Of a DNA stretch of 64,000 bases, positions 7,700 through 46,489 are shown in pieces (position 1 is the stretch's first letter; the number at the start of each line of letters is the position of its first letter). The translations under genes were made by a program, and so were the position numbers. Under the pieces are notes generated by a model. The model worked only from the letters and a program-made list of their open reading frames with translations. It searched no databases and was not told where the DNA came from. The stretch comes from Escherichia phage SUT_E420. The DNA is taken from sequence record OQ990039. One strand, written 5' to 3'.

Positions 7700-7770
7700 A
7701 CCGACCGTAGGATTCGAACCTACATCTTCCACCAGTTACGGCTTGATAATACCAATTATACTAGGACGGC
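7700..7770 (-). ncRNA. tRNA-like element (T-arm and acceptor present, no anticodon stem)
   Basis: Perfect T-arm GTAGG-TTCGAAT-CCTAC, 3' acceptor GGTCGGT, D-loop GG, but no foldable anticodon stem and no encoded CCA; possibly the 3' module of a longer structured RNA. Confidence 0.3.
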
Positions 7771-7993
7771 AGTGTTACTACATAAGTGATTTCCACACCC
7801 CACTATTTATAAATCAGAGAAGAGTTTAGGGGAGAGGTTTCAGACGCCTCATTTTACACGTTCTAGCCACTAACCGGGATTGCCGCCCCCTGTGTACTAG
7901 TTTTACAACTAACCCACCGACTCTATTCAATGCGCTCCGGTTGGGATTCTGCACTCAGCGTAATCGGCTCGCTGTTCCCTAATTTATGAATAT

Positions 7994-8022
7994 ATTATAC
8001 AGAATTTATAAGCATTTAGCAA
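7994..8022 (-). promoter_or_regulatory. sigma70-type early promoter (minus): -35 TTGCTA, 17-bp spacer, -10 TATAAT
   Basis: Plus strand ATTATA-N17-TAGCAA; transcribes leftward into the 790-bp non-coding region 7197-7993. Confidence 0.7.
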
Positions 8023-8030
8023 ATGAATTT

Positions 8031-8465
8031 TTAGAAAAATTCACTAGCAATCAAAGCAGTTGTTTTACCGTCATAACGTCCGGGAAATTCTGCCTTAATA
8101 GTTTTCATTAATAGAGCTTTGGTAATACCTGGGTTTAATTTAACCAGTTCTGCAAAATACTCACGAATCTGAACCTCAGTCAGTTGACTTGGCTGATACT
8201 CTTGCAGCATGGAATAAAGCAGTTGCTCATAGTCTACATCAGTAGGAACTTCCATACCAACTTTAATAGCGCGTTGTTTTGCATTTTCTAGAGCCTTAAT
8301 CTGAGCTTTCAGATAGGCTACGAACTCGGTTCGAGTAACAATGTCTTTATCAATACGTTGCAGATCACCAATCATGGTCTGAAGATTAAGTGCCCGTTCC
8401 TTATCACCGTGAGTACGTGCTAGACTAAGTAGTCCACGAAGGGTCATTAGAATATTTTCACCCAT
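8031..8465 (-). CDS. hypothetical protein (144 aa)
   Basis: ORF in track; start overlaps the stop of the upstream small ORF (TAATG); no motif. Confidence 0.45.
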   Translation of the reverse strand: MGENILMTLRGLLSLARTHGDKERALNLQTMIGDLQRIDKDIVTRTEFVAYLKAQIKALENAKQRAIKVGMEVPTDVDYEQLLYSMLQEYQPSQLTEVQIREYFAELVKLNPGITKALLMKTIKAEFPGRYDGKTTALIASEFF

Positions 8466-8635
8466 TATTTCATCCCCAATGCTTGGTTAAAAGATTGTTC
8501 TGTCATAACTGCTGAGACTTTGGCGAAATCAAACTTTTTAGGGTTCGTAGTTATTTCAGCAACGTTAGAAGTTTTAACAGTTTTCGTAGTACGAATACCG
8601 CGAGTGTTAACACCAATAATTACAACTGATTTCAT
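8465..8635 (-). CDS. small hypothetical protein (56 aa), below the track threshold
   Basis: ATG at 8635 preceded by GAGAGGAAG; stop overlaps the next start (TAATG), implying translational coupling. Confidence 0.35.
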   Translation of the reverse strand: MKSVVIIGVNTRGIRTTKTVKTSNVAEITTNPKKFDFAKVSAVMTEQSFNQALGMK

Positions 8636-8667
8636 ATTTCGCTTCCTCTCATTAATTTATGAAAGTA

Positions 8668-8696
8668 TTATACAGAAATTTAAGTAGCTAAGCAAG
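8668..8696 (-). promoter_or_regulatory. sigma70-type early promoter (minus): -35 TTGCTT, 17-bp spacer, -10 TATAAT
   Basis: Plus strand ATTATA-N17-AAGCAA. Confidence 0.7.
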
Positions 8697-8703
8697 TAAA
8701 TTT

Positions 8704-9171
8704 TTAAGTTTTAGTGACAACAGGTTTATAGAATGTATGTCCCTTAATCTTAGTTGTTTTCTTAAACTTCTTTGTCCAGTAAGGTTTATCTTTACCACTA
8801 TGGAAGTATAGTGCTCCATATGTAGGATCTTGTGGTAAATCAACGTAGTATATCACTCTAGCTAAATTCTTAGCGGTTTGCCAAGCCTCATCAGTTTTAT
8901 CAACTTTTGGTCTCTTAGATACCCAAGAGAACTGGTTAGACTGATATACTACTTTACAGTAGGAATCTGGGAATTTACCGGAGTTTACACGGTTTTTAGT
9001 AACATGTGCAATCGCCGTCATTCCCTTTATGCCCTCACCACGACTTTCGAAATAGATATTTTTAGCAATGCAATCTATTTCTTTTGCATCGTGCGATGCC
9101 TGACTACTAAAGCTGAAGGTAAGGGCAGCTACTAAAAGCAAAGCTGCCTTCATTCTTTTTACTCCTGCCAA
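8704..9171 (-). CDS. secreted cell-wall hydrolase, SleB/CwlJ (Hydrolase_2)-like (155 aa)
   Basis: Signal peptide (MKAALLLVAALTFSFSSQA) then NIYFESRGEGIKGMTAIAHVTKNRV...FPDSYCKVVYQSNQFSW, matching the Hydrolase_2 core. Confidence 0.55.
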   Translation of the reverse strand: MAGVKRMKAALLLVAALTFSFSSQASHDAKEIDCIAKNIYFESRGEGIKGMTAIAHVTKNRVNSGKFPDSYCKVVYQSNQFSWVSKRPKVDKTDEAWQTAKNLARVIYYVDLPQDPTYGALYFHSGKDKPYWTKKFKKTTKIKGHTFYKPVVTKT

Positions 9172-9476
9172 TCATATTCAACACGATTGGGATTTTCTTT
9201 ATACCCTAAGTCAAGCAAATCATTACGCATATTTTGCTTAGCTACTGGGTTCGAGGTTACTAGTACCACTTTCTTTGGTCTCTGCCCAAATTCTAAGAGT
9301 AAACGAAGAATTTGATAACCTTCCATACCATCTACAGCCAAGTCATTATCCATATAAACGAAATGGCCGGTGGTATCAGTTTTATTCAGAAACTCTACAG
9401 CGGCTTCTGGGGTTCGAATGATAATGTCCATTCCGTGAAGATTACGCACATCATCAATCAAAATATGAAAAGTCAT
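9159..9476 (-). CDS. receiver (REC)-like domain protein (105 aa)
   Basis: N-terminal ILIDDVR, central YMDNDL and VVLVTSNP resemble a receiver fold; weak assignment. Confidence 0.3.
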   Translation of the reverse strand: MTFHILIDDVRNLHGMDIIIRTPEAAVEFLNKTDTTGHFVYMDNDLAVDGMEGYQILRLLLEFGQRPKKVVLVTSNPVAKQNMRNDLLDLGYKENPNRVEYDWQE

Positions 9477-9506
9477 AATAGCCTCGTTTCATCAATTTAA
9501 AAATAT

Positions 9507-9535
9507 ATTATACAGATAACTTAGTAACTTAGTAA
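9507..9535 (-). promoter_or_regulatory. sigma70-type early promoter (minus) with degenerate -35 (TTACTA) next to an 8-bp tandem duplication
   Basis: Plus strand ATTATA-N17-TAGTAA; CTTAGTAA is duplicated in tandem so the family-consensus TAGCAA lies 25 bp from the -10. Confidence 0.5.
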
Positions 9536-9926
9536 ATTAGCAAATACATTTTTAAATTGTGAAACTAGTAAACCGATAAACAGCCTAGAGGCGCCACAGG
9601 CCATATCTTATGAGCCATGTACCTTTGATCTAGGGTTTGAATCATCAACGAATACTTTGCATCTTTTAGCTTTAGAAGTTTAGAAGTTTGAGTTCTTTAA
9701 ACTTTTCAGCTTTCATACTTAAATGTTGATCTTTGAAGTTGTGTCGGTAATATCAACGACGCTTTGTTCTTACGTGTCAGCTTAAAAGGCTGGTGTAATA
9801 AACATAATCTCCAATAGATTATACTTTATAGTATGGTCAGCGGTCTTATTTAACCCCGTATTTCAACCGCTGCTGCGAGGTAAGATGCTTGGGCTTTCGT
9901 CTACCGATTTACTAGCTTTTAAATTA

Positions 9927-10565
9927 TTACTCTACTTCAATGAAGGTAGAGGCGTTAGACTCGGACAGAACAAAGTCAACATTTGTTGCAAAGTCCTGGT
10001 ATTCCTCGTCATGCTGCTTAATCAACTTCTCCAGTTCCAGCGGATCAATCAAGAATGGAGTATTCTTGAGTTCCAGCAGGTTGAGTTGCATTTTAACTTC
10101 ATCTTCGGAAGTTTTCTTATCACGGGTAGCCATGCTATCCTGCAAACGCTCATATTTAGCATCAAACTGTGCTTTCTGCGTATTAAACTTAACCGTAGCG
10201 GCATGGAACTGCTTACGCATGTTAGCCAGCAGTTGAGCTTTAAGCTCCATAGAACGCTTAGCTTCAATTGCTTCCGCAACAGTCATTTTACGAGAACCGA
10301 TCTCAACGATTGTTTCTGCATTGCTCTTAATCAGAGCAGATTTAATACGATCACGCTGAGACATCATATCCAGCAGAGACTGGAAATCAGTCTTAATACG
10401 AGTAGACAGATCAGCTACTTCGATTGCAGCGCCAACTACAACCTGGTTTTTATCCTTACCTTCACCAACAGCGATCAGAAGCTGCTGTTCAGTAGCTTTA
10501 CGGATTTTAGCTTCCAGAGATTTGATAGTTGCTAGAGCGCGAGTTTTAGAAATACGAGTAGTCAT
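9927..10565 (-). CDS. hypothetical protein (212 aa)
   Basis: ORF with ribosome-binding site; predicted helical; no motif. Confidence 0.45.
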   Translation of the reverse strand: MTTRISKTRALATIKSLEAKIRKATEQQLLIAVGEGKDKNQVVVGAAIEVADLSTRIKTDFQSLLDMMSQRDRIKSALIKSNAETIVEIGSRKMTVAEAIEAKRSMELKAQLLANMRKQFHAATVKFNTQKAQFDAKYERLQDSMATRDKKTSEDEVKMQLNLLELKNTPFLIDPLELEKLIKQHDEEYQDFATNVDFVLSESNASTFIEVE

Positions 10566-10618
10566 TATTTGTTTCCTTATATGAGGTTTGAGATTTGAAT
10601 TTGTTTAAAGTTGGTCTA

Positions 10619-10801
10619 TTACAGACCAATTGCCAGCAGAGTGCGCAGAACAGTATCGTTACTGTTATCAATTTTAGGATTAGCACGATTTAGCAGATCA
10701 AAGATTTTCTGGACACCTGATTGACGTTCAGCCATACGACGGATACCCAGATTACGAGTAGCTTTCTTACCATTTTTACGAACATTTTTAGATACTGGCA
10801 T
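10619..10801 (-). CDS. small basic protein (60 aa)
   Basis: Lys/Arg-rich N-terminus; own promoter 10842-10870. Confidence 0.35.
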   Translation of the reverse strand: MPVSKNVRKNGKKATRNLGIRRMAERQSGVQKIFDLLNRANPKIDNSNDTVLRTLLAIGL

Positions 10802-10841
10802 ATTTGTTTTCCTTTTATTGTTTTCTCAAATTTATGAATAT

Positions 10842-10870
10842 ATTATACAGAATTTTGGAGCCGGAAGCAA
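10842..10870 (-). promoter_or_regulatory. sigma70-type early promoter (minus): -35 TTGCTT, 17-bp spacer, -10 TATAAT
   Basis: Plus strand ATTATA-N17-AAGCAA. Confidence 0.7.
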
Positions 10871-10871
10871 A

Positions 10872-11573
10872 TCAAATTTTCATTTTTTCGATCATAGCTG
10901 CAACACAATAGCTTTCAACTAAGGCATCAAATGCAGGATCATGCTTAACCGGATAGATCCCATAACGAATGGTGTCCATCTTCTCCATTTTAGCTTTTGC
11001 CCAGCTAATACCTTCAGCCTCTAGATCTTTGTAACTATAATCAGCTTGCATCCAGAGATTACGAAGAGATCGAACATTGCCCAAATTCCAGAATTTCCAC
11101 GGAACTACCTCTTCATTGGTTCCAGCATGGAATGTGTTTGCAGAGTAGATAGTCATATCAAACTCTGGGCCATTACCATAATACAAAGCATTTTCGCCTA
11201 GAGCCAACTCCATAATATTTTGAGCCATAGAGAAGGCAGCATAGTTTGAGCCAAATTTATTAGTGCAATGATGTTTACCATTTTGGAAGGCAATCAGTTT
11301 TGGATTACGTTCCTTCATAGCTTCCATAATGTGAATAGCAGACGGGCTATTTTTAGCTTGATCCATCCAGAATGCTAGAGTAGATGCTGTAACTTTAGCA
11401 CCAGAATTAAGCTGATCTTGTACATCCAAAGTAACAAATACTAGATCAGGGTCTTTATCAATTCCATGCATAGCCACAAAAGCGAAAGAAGGCATTGCGA
11501 TATGAGTAGTACCACAATCTCCTGGAGTTCCCAGAGATTCAATATCTAGCATACCAAATGGTTTTACTTTCAT
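10872..11573 (-). CDS. DEDDh-type 3'-5' exonuclease-like protein (233 aa)
   Basis: Exo I-like LDIESLG, Exo III-like HDPAFDALV (His-x4-Asp), central acidic residues. Confidence 0.5.
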   Translation of the reverse strand: MKVKPFGMLDIESLGTPGDCGTTHIAMPSFAFVAMHGIDKDPDLVFVTLDVQDQLNSGAKVTASTLAFWMDQAKNSPSAIHIMEAMKERNPKLIAFQNGKHHCTNKFGSNYAAFSMAQNIMELALGENALYYGNGPEFDMTIYSANTFHAGTNEEVVPWKFWNLGNVRSLRNLWMQADYSYKDLEAEGISWAKAKMEKMDTIRYGIYPVKHDPAFDALVESYCVAAMIEKMKI

Positions 11574-11601
11574 AAGTTATCCTTTATTGTGTAGAAAACT
11601 A

Positions 11602-11838
11602 TTAAAGAGCTGTCTCTTTAATAGACTCCCACTTCTTGGGGTCTTTAAAACCAGGGAGCATATCCTCACTGACATCCCAGTTCTCTTCCATAGAGAAGTC
11701 GGGCCATTCATCCCAACTACCTTCCAACTCTTCATAACAGGTATCCATTACCTCATGACTAGAAAGTCGTGTATAATCCCTAGCTGACTTATGGGTGGTA
11801 GCACGGTTAAAATCATTCTTTGCCACAAAATTACGCAT
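11602..11838 (-). CDS. hypothetical acidic protein (78 aa)
   Basis: ORF in track; no motif. Confidence 0.4.
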   Translation of the reverse strand: MRNFVAKNDFNRATTHKSARDYTRLSSHEVMDTCYEELEGSWDEWPDFSMEENWDVSEDMLPGFKDPKKWESIKETAL

Positions 11839-11855
11839 AGTTTCTCCAAATAAGA

Positions 11856-11869
11856 GGGGCTTTCGCCCC
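11856..11869 (-). terminator. GC tetraloop hairpin (GGGGC-TTTC-GCCCC), putative attenuator
   Basis: Perfect 5-bp GC stem between genes 11880-12095 and 11602-11838; one of a family of similar hairpins. Confidence 0.35.
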
Positions 11870-11879
11870 CTGATTTAAA

Positions 11880-12750: not shown

Positions 12751-13200
12751 TTAATTTATTAACTGTAAGCTTCTTTTAATTTCAGACCTTACTTGCATCA
12801 AAAGGACTCCTAAAGTATTATCCCCGATGCCTCGGCAAACACCCCAATATGTATCTCCCCAGGTATTTCCTTCGATCAAAGTTGCATTTTCTGTTGCTAA
12901 CAGTTTATCTCTTAAATCAGGAATTGCAAACTTTAATCGTAAAAGCTCTAGCATTACATCATCTTTTACTTTATCCCAGTCAGAGCGTAGGGTTAATTTA
13001 CGTCCTCTACGTTTAGCAACTCCTGCATTTAGGGAGCGGAGTACATGAGCTACATCATCTTTTTGGTCGGATTTCATAGCCTGAAAAGCATGTTCTACAG
13101 TATCAGCATGCCATATCTCATTTAGATATTCGAAAGTAATTGGTGATAAATAAAAGTTAGATAAGAAACTATAAGTACCTTTAAATTCAGTAATCTTCAT
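12751..13200 (-). CDS. NADAR-family (YbiA-like, DUF1768) protein (149 aa)
   Basis: FLSNFY...EHAFQAMK and LIEGNTWGDTYWGVCRGIGDNTLGVLLMQVR closely parallel the E. coli YbiA signature. Confidence 0.75.
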   Translation of the reverse strand: MKITEFKGTYSFLSNFYLSPITFEYLNEIWHADTVEHAFQAMKSDQKDDVAHVLRSLNAGVAKRRGRKLTLRSDWDKVKDDVMLELLRLKFAIPDLRDKLLATENATLIEGNTWGDTYWGVCRGIGDNTLGVLLMQVRSEIKRSLQLIN

Positions 13201-13481
13201 TTTTTACGCCCCGCATCTTTAGCCTCCTCGGCTGTATAGATATACTGATAAGCCCCTTTGGAGTAGGCTGGAGCAGTACACATTTTCTTACGCTCAATCT
13301 CTTCTTGAGCTTTTCTTTCGCGTTCCGCTAATTCTTCGTCCAAATAAACTAAACGTTGTTCTGGAGGAGGTGGAAGACGTGTTTCTGGCTCGCCAATATT
13401 AGCCTTTCTTATTTGACGAGGTGATTGTGCACGTTTTCTCAATGGTTTAAATCCTAATGAATTTGAGTTATAGATCCGCAT
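13197..13481 (-). CDS. hypothetical basic protein (94 aa)
   Basis: ORF overlapping the NADAR start by 4 nt; promoter 13509-13537 upstream. Confidence 0.4.
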   Translation of the reverse strand: MRIYNSNSLGFKPLRKRAQSPRQIRKANIGEPETRLPPPPEQRLVYLDEELAERERKAQEEIERKKMCTAPAYSKGAYQYIYTAEEAKDAGRKK

Positions 13482-42005: not shown

Positions 42006-42771
42006 GTCTTGGGGCGAAACTACTGGCGGTTCTAACGATAAAATCGAATTCCTGAAGTTCAACAACGGTATCACTCGTGTTCGTATCGTTTCTGGTGTTC
42101 TTCCACGTTATGTCTATTGGCTGACTAATAAAGAGGGTAACGTAGCTCCTTTCGAATGTCTCCGTTTTAACCGTGACAAAGAGAGCTTTGTTCGTGGTAA
42201 AGCTGATCCGGTTCATGAGATGGGCTTCTTCGAGAAAGAGCTGGATAAAGATGGTAATCGTGTTCCGCTGAAACCGAAGAAAAACTATATCGCTTTTGTT
42301 ATCGACCGTTCTGATAACAAACTGAAAGTAATGGAAGTCAAGGCTACTATTCTGAAAGGCATCCAGTCTATCATGAAGCAGCTGAGCCTGGCAACTCCGT
42401 TTGATATTGATATTTCTATCGAGAAAAAAGGTAAAGGTTTCGATACTGAGTATGATGTACAGCAGATTGCTGCTATGCAGTTCCAGATTAAGCTGCAAGA
42501 TCCTAACAGTGCAGAATCTAAGCAATATGCTGCAGATGTAGATCTGATCGGTGAAGCTATGTGTGATGAAGATGGCGACATCATTAAGTTCGAAAAAGTT
42601 CCTTCTCTGGAACAAACCTATCCGGTTCCTACCTATGAAGAGCAGAAAGAAGCAATTCTAGCCTTCATGGAAGGTCGTGAGAATAAAGATGATGATGCCA
42701 AATCTGGTAATAGCAATGCAGGCTCCCAGAAAGGTATTGACACAGAAGCTGCAAGCGATCTGGATGACTAA
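41998..42771 (+). CDS. highly expressed early protein (T5 D11-position), function unknown (257 aa)
   Basis: Ribosome-binding site AAAGAGGAAA, strong high-expression codon bias, acidic C-terminal tail (EAASDLDD); followed by a terminator. Confidence 0.5.
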   Translation: MAKSWGETTGGSNDKIEFLKFNNGITRVRIVSGVLPRYVYWLTNKEGNVAPFECLRFNRDKESFVRGKADPVHEMGFFEKELDKDGNRVPLKPKKNYIAFVIDRSDNKLKVMEVKATILKGIQSIMKQLSLATPFDIDISIEKKGKGFDTEYDVQQIAAMQFQIKLQDPNSAESKQYAADVDLIGEAMCDEDGDIIKFEKVPSLEQTYPVPTYEEQKEAILAFMEGRENKDDDAKSGNSNAGSQKGIDTEAASDLDD

Positions 42772-42796
42772 TAAATAGAGGGGCTTCGGCCCCTTT

Positions 42797-42896
42797 NNNN
42801 NNNNNNNNNNNNNNNNNNNNNNNNNNNNNNNNNNNNNNNNNNNNNNNNNNNNNNNNNNNNNNNNNNNNNNNNNNNNNNNNNNNNNNNNNNNNNNNN
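42797..42896. other. assembly gap (100 N) flanked by identical 77-bp copies
   Basis: 42720-42796 is identical to 42897-42973. Confidence 0.85.
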
Positions 42897-42956
42897 AGGC
42901 TCCCAGAAAGGTATTGACACAGAAGCTGCAAGCGATCTGGATGACTAATAAATAGA

Positions 42957-42979
42957 GGGGCTTCGGCCCCTTTCTTTTT
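42957..42979 (+). terminator. rho-independent terminator (GGGGC-TTCG-GCCCC plus T-run)
   Basis: GC stem with TTCG tetraloop followed by TTTCTTTTT; the first copy at 42780-42796 is truncated by the gap. Confidence 0.7.
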
Positions 42980-42984
42980 AACCA

Positions 42985-44139
42985 ATGAGAATATTATTTA
43001 GTGCTGATCATCATATCAAACTAGGACAAGATAAAGTTCCAAAGGAATGGCAGAAGCGTCGCTTCCTGATGCTAGGAGAACGGTTAAATGATATATTCCA
43101 TAATCATAACTGTGATCTTCATATTGCTGGTGGTGATATACTTGATGTTGCCGACCCGTCGTCAGAAGAAATAGAACTGCTTGAACAGTTCATGTCAAGA
43201 CTTGACCATCCAGGCAAAATCTTTACTGGAAATCATGAAATGTTAACGAAAACCATTTCATGTCTATATCATTATGCAGGAGTTATTAATAAAGTAACGA
43301 GTGGTAAGTGGGAAGTAATTACCAAACCATATCGTTCCCCTGAATTTGATATTGTTCCATATGACGAAATCCATAAATCTAAGTGGAAACCATCTGAATC
43401 AAAACTATGTTTCACGCATGTTCGTGGTGAAATCCCTCCACATGTAAAACCAGANNNNNNNNNNNNNNNNNNNNNNNNNNNNNNNNNNNNNNNNNNNNNN
43501 NNNNNNNNNNNNNNNNNNNNNNNNNNNNNNNNNNNNNNNNNNNNNNNNNNNNNNTCTAAGTGGAAACCATCTGAATCAAAACTATGTTTCACGCATGTTC
43601 GTGGTGAAATCCCTCCACATGTAAAACCAGAAATTGATCTAACTAAGTACAACTGTTATGATACTGTAATTGCTGGCGATTTACATTCTTATACTAATAG
43701 CCAGACTATCGGATCTACTAGACTCCTCTACCCAGGGTCTCCATTAACTACATCGTTCCATAGAGAACGCACAAAAGGTACAAATGGTTGCTTTATCGTT
43801 GATACCGACACATTAAAAGTAGAATGGATTGAACTCGGTGATTTACCACAACTGATTCGTAAAACAATCGGAGCTGGTGAAGAGATGGAACCTAGTGATT
43901 ATGATCGTGTAGTCTATGAAGTTACTGGTGACGTTGTTCAATTAAAGTCTATCAAAGACTCTGATTTATTAGATAAGAAGATTAACCATCGAGTTACTAA
44001 AGACGCTAAGTTAAATCTTGTTGATCTTGATATGTTAGGCGAACTTGAACTTTACTTCCGTGAAGTTGAGAAGCTATCTCAAGGCGACATTGATAGAATC
44101 TTGGCTAGAGCTGCGAAATATGTCAAAGATTACAATTAA
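42985..44139 (+). CDS. SbcD/Mre11-like nuclease (T5 D12-like)
   Basis: Calcineurin-like phosphoesterase motifs (ILFSADHH, GGDILD, FTGNHE); ORF contains the duplication artefact at 43455-43554. Confidence 0.75.
   Translation: MRILFSADHHIKLGQDKVPKEWQKRRFLMLGERLNDIFHNHNCDLHIAGGDILDVADPSSEEIELLEQFMSRLDHPGKIFTGNHEMLTKTISCLYHYAGVINKVTSGKWEVITKPYRSPEFDIVPYDEIHKSKWKPSESKLCFTHVRGEIPPHVKPXXXXXXXXXXXXXXXXXXXXXXXXXXXXXXXXXXSKWKPSESKLCFTHVRGEIPPHVKPEIDLTKYNCYDTVIAGDLHSYTNSQTIGSTRLLYPGSPLTTSFHRERTKGTNGCFIVDTDTLKVEWIELGDLPQLIRKTIGAGEEMEPSDYDRVVYEVTGDVVQLKSIKDSDLLDKKINHRVTKDAKLNLVDLDMLGELELYFREVEKLSQGDIDRILARAAKYVKDYN
43455..43554. other. assembly gap (100 N) flanked by identical 77-bp copies
   Basis: 43378-43454 is identical to 43555-43631. 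Confidence 0.85.
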
Positions 44140-46489
44140 GACACTAAAATTTAGTAACGTTATGTCTTACGGTAAGGACATCGTAATTCATNNNNNNNNN
44201 NNNNNNNNNNNNNNNNNNNNNNNNNNNNNNNNNNNNNNNNNNNNNNNNNNNNNNNNNNNNNNNNNNNNNNNNNNNNNNNNNNNNNNNNNNNGAAATATGT
44301 CAAAGATTACAATTAAGACACTAAAATTTAGTAACGTTATGTCTTACGGTAAGGACATCGTAATTCATCTCGATAAGAATCCCGTTACTCAACTAATCGG
44401 GGGCAATGGGCTAGGGAAATCTACAATTGCTACTGTTATTGAAGAACTATTCTATAATAAGAACTCACGCGGTATTAAGAAAGATGCTCTGTTCTCTTGG
44501 TCTTCTCCGAAAAAAGAATACGATATGCACGCTTATTTCTCGAAAGATGAGGATGAGTATGAACTGCATAAAGTAGTTAAGTCAACTGCTAAAGTAACTC
44601 TTATTAAGAATGGGGAAGATATTAGTGGACACACGGCAACCCAAACATACAAGATGATTGAAGAAATTATGGGTGGTGACTTCCAAACATTCACCAAACT
44701 GATTTATCAATCGGTGGGCTCCAATCTAGACTTTCTAAAAGCAACGGATGCAACACGTAAGGCTTTTCTTGTTAACTTGTTCAATCAAGAACAGTATAAA
44801 GAAATGTCAGAAACTATTAAGGCNNNNNNNNNNNNNNNNNNNNNNNNNNNNNNNNNNNNNNNNNNNNNNNNNNNNNNNNNNNNNNNNNNNNNNNNNNNNN
44901 NNNNNNNNNNNNNNNNNNNNNNNGATGCAACACGTAAGGCTTTTCTTGTTAACTTGTTCAATCAAGAACAGTATAAAGAAATGTCAGAAACTATTAAGGC
45001 TGACCGTAAAGAAATAGCAAATACCTTAAACAATTTGCAAGGCCAAATGGCTGTAATTACGAAAATCCTTAATGGAAAGAATAATCTAGGAACTCTACAG
45101 GAACCTGTAGAAGTACCGGAGTTTGATGAAGAACCATTAGCACAAGAACTTACTGAATCGAAAATTAAGGCGGCATTAGCCAAGTCTCAAGAGGCTAATA
45201 TTACTAAATTGCGTAATTTGGACAAAGCTGTACAAGTTGCCGAACAATCTTTCGAACCTTTCAAAAATTTACCCGCGCCCACCGACCAAAACGAAGAGAT
45301 CTCAAGTGTTACGCGTGACCTAACGATTGTGACCTCACGTGCTGGTGAAGTTAAGAAACGTTATCAGAAGTTCAAGCAAGAGGCTTCAAATACTGAATGT
45401 CCTACTTGTGGTACTCATCTGGATACAACTGCCGCTCAAAAAGCAATGGATATGGCTAGAACAGAATATGATCCTCTGTTCAAAGAGAAGCAATCTCTTG
45501 AAGCTAAGCTAGAACAGTTGAGGAAAGAACAACTTGAGTACGTTGCGTATATTAGAGCAAAGGATGCCTTGGATAAAGCAGTGGTAGCTAGGGACGAGTT
45601 CAAAAATTCAATGAGTGATGCTTCTTTTGAAGAACTCAATGTGCAAATCCTACAGGTGCAAATCCGACAATTAGAACAGGAAATCGCTGATGGNNNNNNN
45701 NNNNNNNNNNNNNNNNNNNNNNNNNNNNNNNNNNNNNNNNNNNNNNNNNNNNNNNNNNNNNNNNNNNNNNNNNNNNNNNNNNNNNNNNNNNNNGATGCTT
45801 CTTTTGAAGAACTCAATGTGCAAATCCTACAGGTGCAAATCCGACAATTAGAACAGGAAATCGCTGATGGACGTTCTAAGGTTGCAATTGCCAAAGAGCA
45901 TAATGCAAATGTCGAATTAGCCAATGCAAAATATAAAGCGAAACTAGAACAGATTGAGAAAGCTGAAGCAGAAATGTCCGAGATTACTTCCAAATTAAAT
46001 GAAGTATCAGAAGCTGTTGCTGATCTCGATATTCTGATTGCTGCATTGAAGAATTTAGTAGGATATAAACTAGAGCATAGTGTGAAAGTATTTGAAGAAC
46101 TAATTAATAAATACCTTTCTATTATGACTGGCGGTAAATTCGCACTTGGATTTGAACTTGATGAAACAAAATTACAAGTAGTAATCTTCAATGATGGAAA
46201 TCGTACCAGTATGGAGAACTGCTCTACTGGTCAACAGAGTCGAATTAACCTAGCAACCCTGTTAGCTATTCGGATGCTGTTAACATCTATTAGTAAAGTT
46301 AATATTAATCTTCTATTCCTTGATGAAGTAATTAGCTTTATTGATACGAAAGGACTTGACACTCTTGTTGAATTATTAAACGAGGAAGAAAGTCTAAATT
46401 CTATCATTGTTTCTCATGGGCATACGCATCCACTAGCTCATAAGATTACTGTCAAAAAAGATGCAGAAGGATTTTCCTACTTAGAATAA
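44119..46489 (+). CDS. SbcC/Rad50-like ATPase (T5 D13-like)
   Basis: Start at MSKITIKTLKF; Walker A GGNGLGKST, long central coiled coil, C-terminal signature/Walker B region (LLFLDEV); three duplication artefacts inflate the track ORF by about 177 aa. Confidence 0.7.
44192..44291. other. assembly gap (100 N) flanked by identical 77-bp copies
   Basis: 44115-44191 is identical to 44292-44368. Confidence 0.85.
44824..44923. other. assembly gap (100 N) flanked by identical 77-bp copies
   Basis: 44747-44823 is identical to 44924-45000. Confidence 0.85.
45694..45793. other. assembly gap (100 N) flanked by identical 77-bp copies
   Basis: 45617-45693 is identical to 45794-45870. Confidence 0.85.

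Follow-up and report, generated by a model that had tools for sequence, protein, structure and literature searches.

Positions 8704 to 9476 of the analyzed window (a 64,000-nt stretch of a T5-like phage genome, 100% identical to Escherichia phage SUT_E1520 across the stretch) carry two minus-strand open reading frames, a SleB/CwlJ-type cell wall hydrolase gene and a cREC gene, which are the orthologs of T5.083 and T5.084. We give about an even chance to the reading that they form one early transcription unit serving two unrelated jobs. The hydrolase probably serves as an accessory muralytic enzyme, exported through Sec and redundant with the M15 endolysin, and the cREC protein is predicted, in line with the published prediction (PMC9503650), to be a separately acting cytoplasmic cyclic-phosphate/ADP-ribose phosphoesterase. 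Both genes are already known under their T5 annotations and are real but ordinary, with nothing that goes beyond public annotation and Pfam.

Gene layout and transcription unit

The cREC gene (9159..9476, minus strand, 105 aa) ends with a stop codon at 9161-9159, followed by 5 nt and then by the ATG at 9153 that opens the hydrolase gene (8704..9153, minus strand, 149-aa precursor, stop codon at 8706-8704). The junction reads CAGGAGTAAAAAGAATG, and the Shine-Dalgarno sequence of the hydrolase gene, GGAG (9162..9165, minus strand), lies inside the last cREC codons, 8 nt upstream of the ATG. The earlier note had described a 13-nt overlap of the two genes, which resulted from a longest-ORF choice of a TTG start at 9171. 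This TTG has no ribosome-binding site, and the N-termini of homologs as well as public annotations favor the corrected start at ATG 9153, which opens a canonical signal peptide and begins a 450-nt coding sequence in every public annotation inspected. Therefore, the overlap that had hinted at coupling between cREC and the hydrolase is a start-codon artifact. Both genes are under purifying selection (dN/dS of 0.10 and 0.09 relative to T5) and are found in >440 public phage records; thus, they are not chance open reading frames.

A sigma-70-type early promoter-like site upstream of cREC (9507..9536, minus strand; TTTACT, 18-nt spacer, TATAAT; 10 of 12 matches in the promoter scan) heads the two-gene unit; in T5 RefSeq, a promoter is annotated at the corresponding place immediately before T5.084. 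The unit is bounded downstream by the next early promoter (8667..8695, minus strand; TTGCTT, 17-nt spacer, TATAAT), which lies 9 nt past the hydrolase stop codon and drives a DUF7616 gene and a YqeY-like gene. This second promoter was read from the sequence and is missing from the automatic scan because its -35 hexamer scores 3/6; the corresponding T5 site carries promoter P-D/E 33 in RefSeq. A scan of positions 7500-11000 turned up no terminator-like site, and an Rfam scan of positions 7000-11000 returned only tRNA matches and sub-threshold noise. A snoR83 match across the gene junction was dismissed (23 bits against a 40-bit cutoff).

Could the two proteins act together, for example with cREC regulating the expression, export, or activity of the hydrolase? 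The shared promoter, the ribosome-binding site within the cREC 3′ end, and the 5-nt gap could be read this way, as could the gene order, which is kept in divergent T5-like contigs at cREC identities of 53-68%. To follow the adjacency further, we surveyed three divergent T5-like contigs, My1, Sugarland, rV5, a KVP40-type phage, three distant SleB loci, and four distant cREC loci. Even within the same phage family, the pairing is not kept: five genes separate cREC and the SleB-like gene in My1, the Sugarland SleB gene has no neighboring cREC, and another gene is inserted between the two in one of the divergent contigs (L009). A Hydrolase_2 neighbor is absent at all four divergent cREC loci, which are unrelated to the T5 lineage, and at the KVP40-type locus as annotated, and the SleB-like genes of rV5 and of three other phage contigs have no cREC neighbor. 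The cREC-hydrolase adjacency is thus synteny within the T5 lineage only. In addition, cREC is predicted to be cytoplasmic whereas the hydrolase is predicted to be exported, and the cREC family is predicted to be enzymatic and never occurs with histidine kinases (PMC7824862). A joint function is therefore very improbable.

The cREC protein

The T5.084 ortholog is an acidic protein (pI 4.9) with a stand-alone, minimal receiver fold and conserved residues D8/D9, D43/N44/D45, and T74. It matches Pfam cREC_REC (PF20274) with 56.8 bits against a cutoff of 27, over model positions 2-86 of 88, and the Pfam search gave no second family at an E value of 0.1 or better. It shows the CheY-like receiver fold with the active-site aspartates at the ends of beta-1 and beta-3. 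The HMM match above threshold and the fold bear out the REC-like character that had been ascribed to this neighbor. A classical response-regulator receiver was rejected, as a conserved Lys following beta-5 is lacking (EYD at residues 100-102) and so is an output domain; no partner histidine kinase was found in T5-like genomes.

The cREC family was defined by Iyer et al. in 2021 and has been predicted to resolve 2′,3′- or 1′′-2′′-cyclic phosphates of RNA ends or ADP-ribose derivatives (PMC7824862, PMC9503650). A tRNA cluster, an Rv2179c-like exoribonuclease gene, and a NADAR gene lie 1-4 kb from cREC. No RNA ligase, sirtuin, 2H, or Nudix gene neighbors cREC at the locus, and no RNA ligase or kinase that could complete a repair pathway is adjacent to cREC in T5-like phages. 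Most likely, cREC would belong to the RNA/NAD counter-defense gene set of this region and not to cell wall biology. The co-transcribed cREC may, as a separate possibility, be an anti-defense enzyme that destroys cyclic-phosphate immune signals or repairs cleaved tRNA.

Family, fold, and conserved residues of the hydrolase

The hydrolase matches Pfam Hydrolase_2 (PF07486) over the entire model (E = 3.8e-25; 88.9 bits against a cutoff of 27; model positions 1-100 of 100), in agreement with the Hydrolase_2 core proposed previously and contrary to the missing match that the earlier note had named as a refutation, and also PHROG 938 ("endolysin"). It does not belong to the SleB equivalog TIGR02869, which it matches with 50.4 bits against a cutoff of 236.5 and over model positions 79-201 only. 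In a Foldseek search of the PDB with its AlphaFold model (pLDDT 90.9), the only significant matches were the SleB catalytic domains 4F55 and 4FET (probability 1.00; TM 0.71-0.79), both of which were also matched by phmmer. LysSE24 of phage LPSE1, considered as a possible characterized homolog, is a lysozyme of PF00959 without bearing on the present enzyme.

Residues E36 and E40 of the ESRGE motif are invariant in 35 homologs and align to the ESRGE of SleB (phmmer, 4F55/4FET). The codon for Glu36, the first E of the motif, is located at 9046..9048 (minus strand), and its counterpart in the alignment is the glutamate of SleB numbered 120 in chain 4fet_B. Assuming a 31-residue chain offset, E36 would be the equivalent of SleB E151 and presumably the catalytic one of the two glutamates. 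Catalysis in the SleB family needs a glutamate (PMC12331253, PMC11148199). Among the homologs, C66 is invariant and C28 nearly so. The mature hydrolase is computed to be a very basic single-domain protein of 15 kDa with a pI of 9.7, and Hydrolase_2 lysins from Gram-negative phages typically have a cationic C-terminus (PMC8223927).

Predicted signal peptide and export

Residues 1-19, MKAALLLVAALTFSFSSQA (9097..9153, minus strand), form a predicted Sec-type signal peptide that is followed by SHD, with the predicted signal peptidase I cut after Ala19. By rule, its N-terminus consists of an n-region MK, a 13-residue h-region AALLLVAALTFSF, and an S-Q-A↓S site. Although the signal sequence itself diverges, 33 of the 34 full-length homologs have an uncharged segment followed by an AXA-type site, so that the signal peptide named in the earlier note holds as a prediction. 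Two other kinds of N-terminus were considered: (i) a SAR endolysin has a ~20-residue Gly/Ala/Ser-rich transmembrane domain that is not cleaved, whereas the h-region here has just 13 residues with an AXA-type site after it, and therefore, by this heuristic, the N-terminus looks cleavable rather than like a SAR anchor; (ii) a lipoprotein was rejected since the predicted cleavage site lacks a Cys. No periplasmic inhibitor or immunity gene was found adjoining the hydrolase gene, and the downstream DUF7616 protein has no signal sequence. Small signal-peptide SleB-like genes among early or metabolic genes also occur in T5-like, rV5-like, and several uncultured phage lineages.

The 149-aa precursor would be exported through Sec and cut by signal peptidase I, probably after Ala19, which would leave a 15-kDa SleB/CwlJ-fold enzyme in the periplasm, probably with a Cys28-Cys66 disulfide. 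By homology, this enzyme would be a lytic transglycosylase that cleaves the MurNAc-GlcNAc glycan bond through the ESRGE glutamate. Its export would be independent of the holin, and the enzyme may wait in the periplasm and help to dismantle the sacculus at lysis. In the laboratory, the canonical M15 L-Ala-D-Glu endolysin would render it redundant.

Possible role of the hydrolase in lysis or in the envelope

The proven holin-endolysin cassette of T5 (C1/T5.041 and lys/T5.040) is located at 19.9-21.0 kb in the leftward-transcribed early region (PMC3326045), which is 21-22 kb away from T5.083 in T5; no homolog of the T5 holin or lys was found in the 64-kb window. The hydrolase differs from a canonical holin-dependent endolysin in its location outside the lysis cassette and in its predicted export signal. 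The placement of the gene among early genes and outside a lysis cassette, from which the earlier note had derived a possible action during infection rather than at lysis, is correct, but the argument is weak. Since the T5 holin and lys genes are early as well, an early-region position cannot separate a lysis from a non-lysis role.

A function in the envelope during early infection, that is, non-lysis peptidoglycan remodeling for superinfection exclusion, envelope or receptor display, or muropeptide signals, nevertheless has to be weighed. It would fit the early sigma-70-type promoter of the gene and its distance from the holin-endolysin cassette, and distant homologs in other large virulent phages likewise sit among nucleotide-metabolism or early genes outside lysis cassettes, with the rV5 SleB-like gene adjoining rIIA. 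It would also fit the missing fitness effect of the T5.083 knockdown in single-infection laboratory conditions, as expected for a function in competition or exclusion. For superinfection exclusion, which had been the suggestion made for this enzyme, no support was found, and lpp/T5.158 is the gene given this function in the T5 gene table that accompanies the knockdown screen. Muralytic enzymes are not known to serve as exclusion factors; the T4 example, Spackle, inhibits a lysozyme. Given the uninformative position and the link of the SleB-like homologs of Vequintavirinae to lysis (PMC7344957), we regard an early envelope function as unlikely, if still worth consideration.

In the T5 CRISPRi-ART knockdown screen, the holin C1 was Fit, and both lys (T5.040) and T5.083 were Not Fit; only 17 of the 162 genes were Fit in these single-gene knockdowns, and therefore "Not Fit" is weak evidence from a low-sensitivity screen. 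If the hydrolase is a Sec-exported back-up lysin, this would explain why the lys knockdown has no measurable cost. The HIDEN-SEQ and phage Tn-seq essentiality maps cover phages other than the T5-like ones, and no discussion of the Bas54 SleB gene was found in the part of the text that is searchable.

The hydrolase may also be a conditional endolysin for walls that resist the M15 peptidase, such as stationary-phase, heavily 3-3 cross-linked, or O-acetylated walls, and may thereby widen the range of hosts or conditions for lysis. In this regard, the gene is under purifying selection in >500 Demerecviridae-type records (from Escherichia, Salmonella, Klebsiella, and Pectobacterium) without a measurable fitness effect in the laboratory, the two enzymes attack different classes of bond (by homology, glycan for the hydrolase; stem peptide for the M15 peptidase), and a SleB homolog in Zymomonas remodels vegetative peptidoglycan and is functionally tied to peptidoglycan O-acetylation. 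This idea, which we consider improbable as a distinct explanation, is a refinement of the accessory role with the same mechanism. We see a similarly slim chance that signal-peptide SleB-like enzymes are a widespread, unrecognized class among the large virulent phages of Gram-negative hosts, one that pre-conditions or remodels the sacculus (a holin-independent "pre-lysis" or exclusion function) instead of acting as endolysins, with cREC serving separately in anti-defense.

Overall, an accessory exported muralytic hydrolase with a separately acting cREC is the best explanation, in which our confidence is middling. Against it, an active muralytic enzyme would be expected to put the cell at risk if it is exported early on. 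Bacillus SleB requires muramic-delta-lactam, which E. coli does not have, and therefore the substrate preference of the phage hydrolase could differ from that of SleB.

Significance for T5-like phages

T5-like phages have long served as a classic model and are often considered for phage therapy, and several groups have already remarked on a second "endolysin" far from the holin in them. If the hydrolase proves to be a back-up lysin, its compact size and naturally cationic character might make it useful in applications; should it act before lysis instead, it would represent a phage envelope-remodeling factor of a new kind. The neighboring cREC belongs to a predicted enzyme family, and T5 would be a tractable test case for this family.

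Comparison with known systems

The hydrolase resembles Bacillus SleB/CwlJ in the full-length PF07486 match, the ESRGE motif, the fold (TM 0.71-0.79), and 28-31% identity. It differs from them in being a phage gene product, and from SleB in lacking the N-terminal peptidoglycan-binding domain and in its conserved Cys pair, which stands in place of a Leu and a Ser of SleB. To our knowledge, no YpeB/GerQ-type partner is to be expected for the phage hydrolase.

Closer counterparts are found in Vequintavirinae and relatives (rV5 gp002, CB7_83, CR3_087), which share a cleavable-type signal peptide and a single Hydrolase_2 domain in 150-166 aa, 40% identity to the T5-type hydrolase (E = 6e-28), and, for the rV5-type gene, a location that is also outside a classical lysis cassette. 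These signal-peptide SleB-like proteins have been described as the probable (main) endolysin, are implicated in lysis by phage CR3, and are toxic on expression (PMC7344957). However, a candidate holin adjoins the SleB-like gene in Vequintavirinae (PMC7344957), whereas T5-like phages already carry a holin and M15 endolysin cassette. In addition, rV5 gp002 lacks the Cys28/Cys66 pair.

Lys44 of Oenococcus phage fOg44, which has a signal peptide, and SAR endolysins such as P1 Lyz also reach the wall by the Sec route without holin holes, and exported endolysins of this kind are thought to be restrained until the membrane is de-energized. Their catalytic folds are unrelated to the SleB-like fold of the T5 hydrolase, whose apparently cleavable N-terminus further separates it from SAR endolysins (13-residue h-region and AXA site).

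The type VI secretion effector T6EC3 has a SleB-like fold as well and attacks E. coli peptidoglycan from the periplasm; it rounds and bursts E. coli, and its E108Q variant, at the SleB-aligned glutamate, points to a residue that is essential for toxicity (PMC11148199). In contrast to the phage enzyme, T6EC3 is delivered between bacteria, its SleB-like part is the C-terminal domain of a larger effector, and it has a cognate periplasmic immunity protein, while no immunity-like gene was seen adjoining the T5-type hydrolase gene.

Finally, T5.084 shares with the cREC family (PF20274) the receiver fold, the acidic residues at the beta-1 and beta-3 ends, and the lack of a histidine kinase. It differs in being a minimal stand-alone protein, with neither the fused Nudix domain nor the adjacent RNA ligase, sirtuin, or 2H genes, the contexts that motivated the functional prediction for this family.

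A conserved gene pair in the early region

The window is T5-like phage DNA that, over positions 8000-10600, has 100% identity to Escherichia phage SUT_E1520. This stretch matches 446 records, hundreds of which are Tequintavirus or Epseptimavirus at 88-99% identity. Because positions 8461-11877 align with 42047-45453 of the T5 reference, the two minus-strand ORFs of 8704-9476 are the orthologues of T5.083 (8704-9153; a SleB/CwlJ-type hydrolase) and T5.084 (9159-9476; a receiver-like protein, here cREC), at the edge of the tRNA cluster in the leftward-transcribed early region. Comparison with T5 gives a dN/dS of 0.10 for the hydrolase and of 0.09 for cREC; in more distant T5-like contigs the proteins keep 55-70% identity although synonymous sites have reached saturation. 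With tblastn, ~520 phage records carry the hydrolase at ≥60% identity, and ~395 carry cREC at ≥80%. RefSeq labels T5.083 "endolysin" (elsewhere "cell wall hydrolase SleB" or "spore cortex-lytic enzyme") and T5.084 is a "hypothetical protein, similar to KVP40.0304". Public records and Pfam already show the two genes, their domain assignments and the adjacency, so the observation is already known, and several papers already mention the SleB-like gene of T5-like phages.

The 13-nt overlap between the genes described in the earlier note came from the longest ORF, which opens with a TTG at 9171 that has no ribosome-binding site. The minus-strand junction reads TGG CAG GAG TAA AAAGA ATG, with GGAG 8 nt upstream of the hydrolase ATG at 9153; since the cREC stop codon is at 9161-9159, the genes do not overlap but are separated by 5 nt. 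Every public annotation inspected gives the 450-nt CDS from ATG 9153, and hydrolase homologues begin with MK or MR. Upstream of cREC is a sigma-70-type promoter-like site (9536-9507, minus strand; TTTACT and TATAAT, 18 nt apart), at the position equivalent to a promoter annotated in T5 RefSeq. The next promoter (8695-8667, minus strand; TTGCTT and TATAAT, 17 nt apart), which corresponds to T5 promoter P-D/E 33, begins nine nucleotides past the hydrolase stop codon. Given these flanking promoters, cREC and the hydrolase form a bicistronic early unit; no terminator-like site was found in 7500-11000.

The order cREC-hydrolase is retained in T5-like relatives down to 53-68% cREC identity. Contig L009, a divergent T5-like metagenomic sequence, has a crAss001_48/"Sequestin"-family gene (PF21825) on each side of cREC (L009 3763-4546), one of them between cREC and the hydrolase. 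Beyond these relatives the pairing is lost. In Pectobacterium phage My1, of the same family, the hydrolase homologue (55% identity) is five genes from cREC; in Klebsiella phage Sugarland no cREC gene adjoins the hydrolase gene, and rV5 gp002 adjoins rIIA. Three distant hydrolase homologues, all from large uncultured phages, have thymidylate-synthase, phosphoesterase or baseplate genes around them and no cREC. Conversely, four divergent cREC genes (35-44% identity) on non-T5 contigs have no Hydrolase_2 neighbour, and the KVP40-type cREC has a tRNA array next to it and is otherwise surrounded by hypothetical genes. Therefore, the adjacency is inherited synteny and not an independent sign of cooperation. 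As one product is cytoplasmic and acidic and the other, by prediction, exported and basic, we regard functional coupling as very improbable.

cREC and its surroundings

The receiver-like character proposed for the 105-aa neighbour was borne out, and the family is more specifically cREC: the T5.084 orthologue is a member of PF20274. D8, D43, N44, D45 and T74 never vary and D9 almost never does; all occupy receiver active-site positions, at the C-terminal ends of beta-1, beta-3 and beta-4. It is not a classical response regulator, as the receiver beta-5 lysine has no counterpart in cREC. The family was defined in 2021 by Iyer, Aravind and colleagues as a receiver derivative never linked to histidine kinases; it co-occurs with RNA-repair and NAD/ADP-ribose genes and is predicted to open 2',3'- or 1''-2''-cyclic phosphates (PMC7824862). 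The same authors state that it is experimentally uncharacterised (PMC9503650). Judged by family assignment, cREC is probably a small cytoplasmic phosphoesterase-type receiver domain.

The surroundings of cREC are more in keeping with RNA/NAD counter-defence than with cell-wall biology, because a tRNA cluster, a weak YqeY/GatB-like protein, an Rv2179c-like 3'-5' exoribonuclease and a NADAR gene lie there. No RNA ligase, kinase, sirtuin, 2H or Nudix partner was found near cREC; thus, an RNA-repair-type pathway would be incomplete and the cREC chemistry is a published prediction.

The NADAR-domain gene (12751-13200, minus strand; Pfam E 7.2e-22), an accessory gene for ADP-ribose processing that lies 3.3 kb upstream of cREC, is followed by a 94-aa ORF (13197-13481), and the segment is absent from the T5 reference at that site (T5 46050/46097 correspond to window 12752/13243). 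The T5.087 orthologue (10872-11573, minus strand), variously labelled metallopeptidase, exonuclease or recombination-related exonuclease, has a Pfam Rv2179c-like 3'-5' exoribonuclease domain (E 5.2e-08). The 212-aa product of 9927-10565 (minus strand) is a "tail fiber protein" in many records (PHROG 1491), although its gene is part of the early region and no Pfam family matches it; the label is probably a propagated misannotation. Between the T5.085 orthologue and cREC, the 450 bp of 9477-9926 are conserved with T5 43063-43504 and contain no minus-strand ORF of at least 40 aa and no Rfam match, the promoter-like site at 9507-9536 being the sole annotated feature; a small RNA, tiny ORF, regulatory site or nick site could be located here. 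On the other side, a 56-aa DUF7616 gene (8465-8635, minus strand) comes after the hydrolase in all T5-like contigs examined and shares one base with the T5.081 orthologue (8031-8465, minus strand), whose "tRNA amidotransferase" label derives from a sub-threshold YqeY match (E 0.0032, 18 bits vs 27). Positions 7197-8030 correspond to T5 "RNAX", an annotated stable RNA of unknown function. Within them, downstream of tRNA-Arg (7122-7196), is a tRNA-like element (7699-7770) that matches the Rfam tRNA model at 35.5 bits and is left uncalled by ARAGORN. The T5.080 orthologue (6140-7087, minus strand), between the tRNA cluster and tRNA-Arg, is an SPFH/Band_7-domain membrane protein labelled "lipoprotein".

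A probably exported enzyme with a SleB fold

The Hydrolase_2 core reported in the earlier note held up, and the signal peptide it reported is probable. The hydrolase matches the complete Pfam Hydrolase_2 model (E 3.8e-25; 88.9 bits, cutoff 27) and PHROG 938 "endolysin". Among solved structures, phmmer returned only the SleB catalytic domains 4F55 and 4FET, with ESRGE aligned on ESRGE. An AlphaFold model built with 35 homologues as input was confident (pLDDT 90.9), and Foldseek against the PDB matched it only to the same two structures (prob 1.00, TM 0.71-0.79), the next match having E > 2. By score, fold and motif, the protein belongs to the Hydrolase_2 domain family. It is not a spore SleB orthologue, since TIGR02869 gave 50 bits against a cutoff of 236.5 and only the catalytic part matched. 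Across the homologues E36, E40, C66, W77 and H139 do not vary, and C28 almost never does. E36 aligns with residue 120 of chain 4fet_B, which would be SleB E151 if the 222-residue construct begins at SleB residue 32; E151 is presumably the catalytic residue of B. anthracis SleB. A single glutamate has been reported as necessary for SleB-family catalysis (PMC12331253; PMC11148199).

The N-terminus, MKAALLLVAALTFSFSSQA|SHD, starts with a basic n-region, followed by a hydrophobic core of 13 residues and a small-x-small site. An equivalent cleavage-type site follows an uncharged segment in 33 of 34 full-length homologues, the N-terminal sequences themselves being divergent, which is good comparative evidence for a predicted cleavable Sec signal peptide. 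The h-region is too short for an anchor, ruling out a signal-arrest-release endolysin, and the N-terminus has no lipobox cysteine. The predicted mature enzyme (15 kDa, pI 9.7) has a strongly cationic C-terminus, a charge pattern described for Hydrolase_2 lysins of Gram-negative phages (PMC8223927).

A possible accessory role in lysis

The earlier note had argued, from the place of the hydrolase gene among early genes and outside a lysis cassette, that the enzyme may act during infection. This does not follow, because the bona fide lysis cassette of T5 (holin C1/T5.041 and endolysin lys/T5.040, 19.9-21.0 kb) is itself in the leftward early region, a placement also described for the T5-like phage AKFV33 (PMC3326045), so gene position cannot separate the two roles. 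The hydrolase is not the cassette endolysin; the window contains no homologue of T5.041 or T5.040. Our best model, about an even call, is that the hydrolase is a lytic-transglycosylase-type enzyme which, exported by the Sec pathway and resident in the periplasm, would back up or accelerate destruction of the sacculus at lysis. A difficulty for this back-up model is that an exported muralytic enzyme made from early times is under no visible restraint, and no periplasmic inhibitor gene adjoins the hydrolase. Control by membrane energisation, as known for some other exported endolysins, may be invoked for the hydrolase only by analogy. A genuine early-infection role in the envelope or in exclusion seems unlikely. 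Also improbable is a reading in which exported mini-SleB enzymes make up a widespread class that acts before lysis or in exclusion, and cREC is an anti-defence enzyme.

The sole functional data found on the two genes come from a CRISPRi-ART screen of T5, in which T5.083, T5.084 and lys (T5.040) were "Not Fit" and holin C1 was "Fit" (PMC11879866). Not Fit for both lys and T5.083 is the pattern expected of redundancy between two muralytic enzymes, although this is weak evidence because only 17 of 162 genes were called Fit. A conditional endolysin, serving atypical walls or growth states, is an improbable alternative reading of the hydrolase. The supplementary text of the screen once places T5.084 with the Fit genes whose function is unknown, against its own 17-gene list and tables (PMC11879866, supplementary files 1 and 16).

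The accessory lysis role is favoured by what is known of related enzymes. One T6SS effector with a SleB fold makes E. coli cells round up and burst, an effect that depends on the glutamate aligned with that of SleB (PMC11148199); therefore, the fold is able to attack ordinary Gram-negative peptidoglycan. A Zymomonas SleB homologue remodels vegetative peptidoglycan. Guzel et al. remarked on a second, SleB-domain "endolysin far from holin" in T5-like Salmonella phages, whose role they did not settle (PMC11180984). In architecture the hydrolase resembles the signal-peptide SleB-like proteins conserved in Vequintavirinae and regarded there as the likely endolysin; a homologue in CR3 has been linked to lysis, and expressing CB7_83 is toxic (PMC7344957). 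A periplasmic disulfide between the two conserved cysteines of the T5-like hydrolase is a reasonable inference; Bacillus SleB, in contrast, carries Leu and Ser at these positions, and rV5 gp002 also lacks both cysteines.
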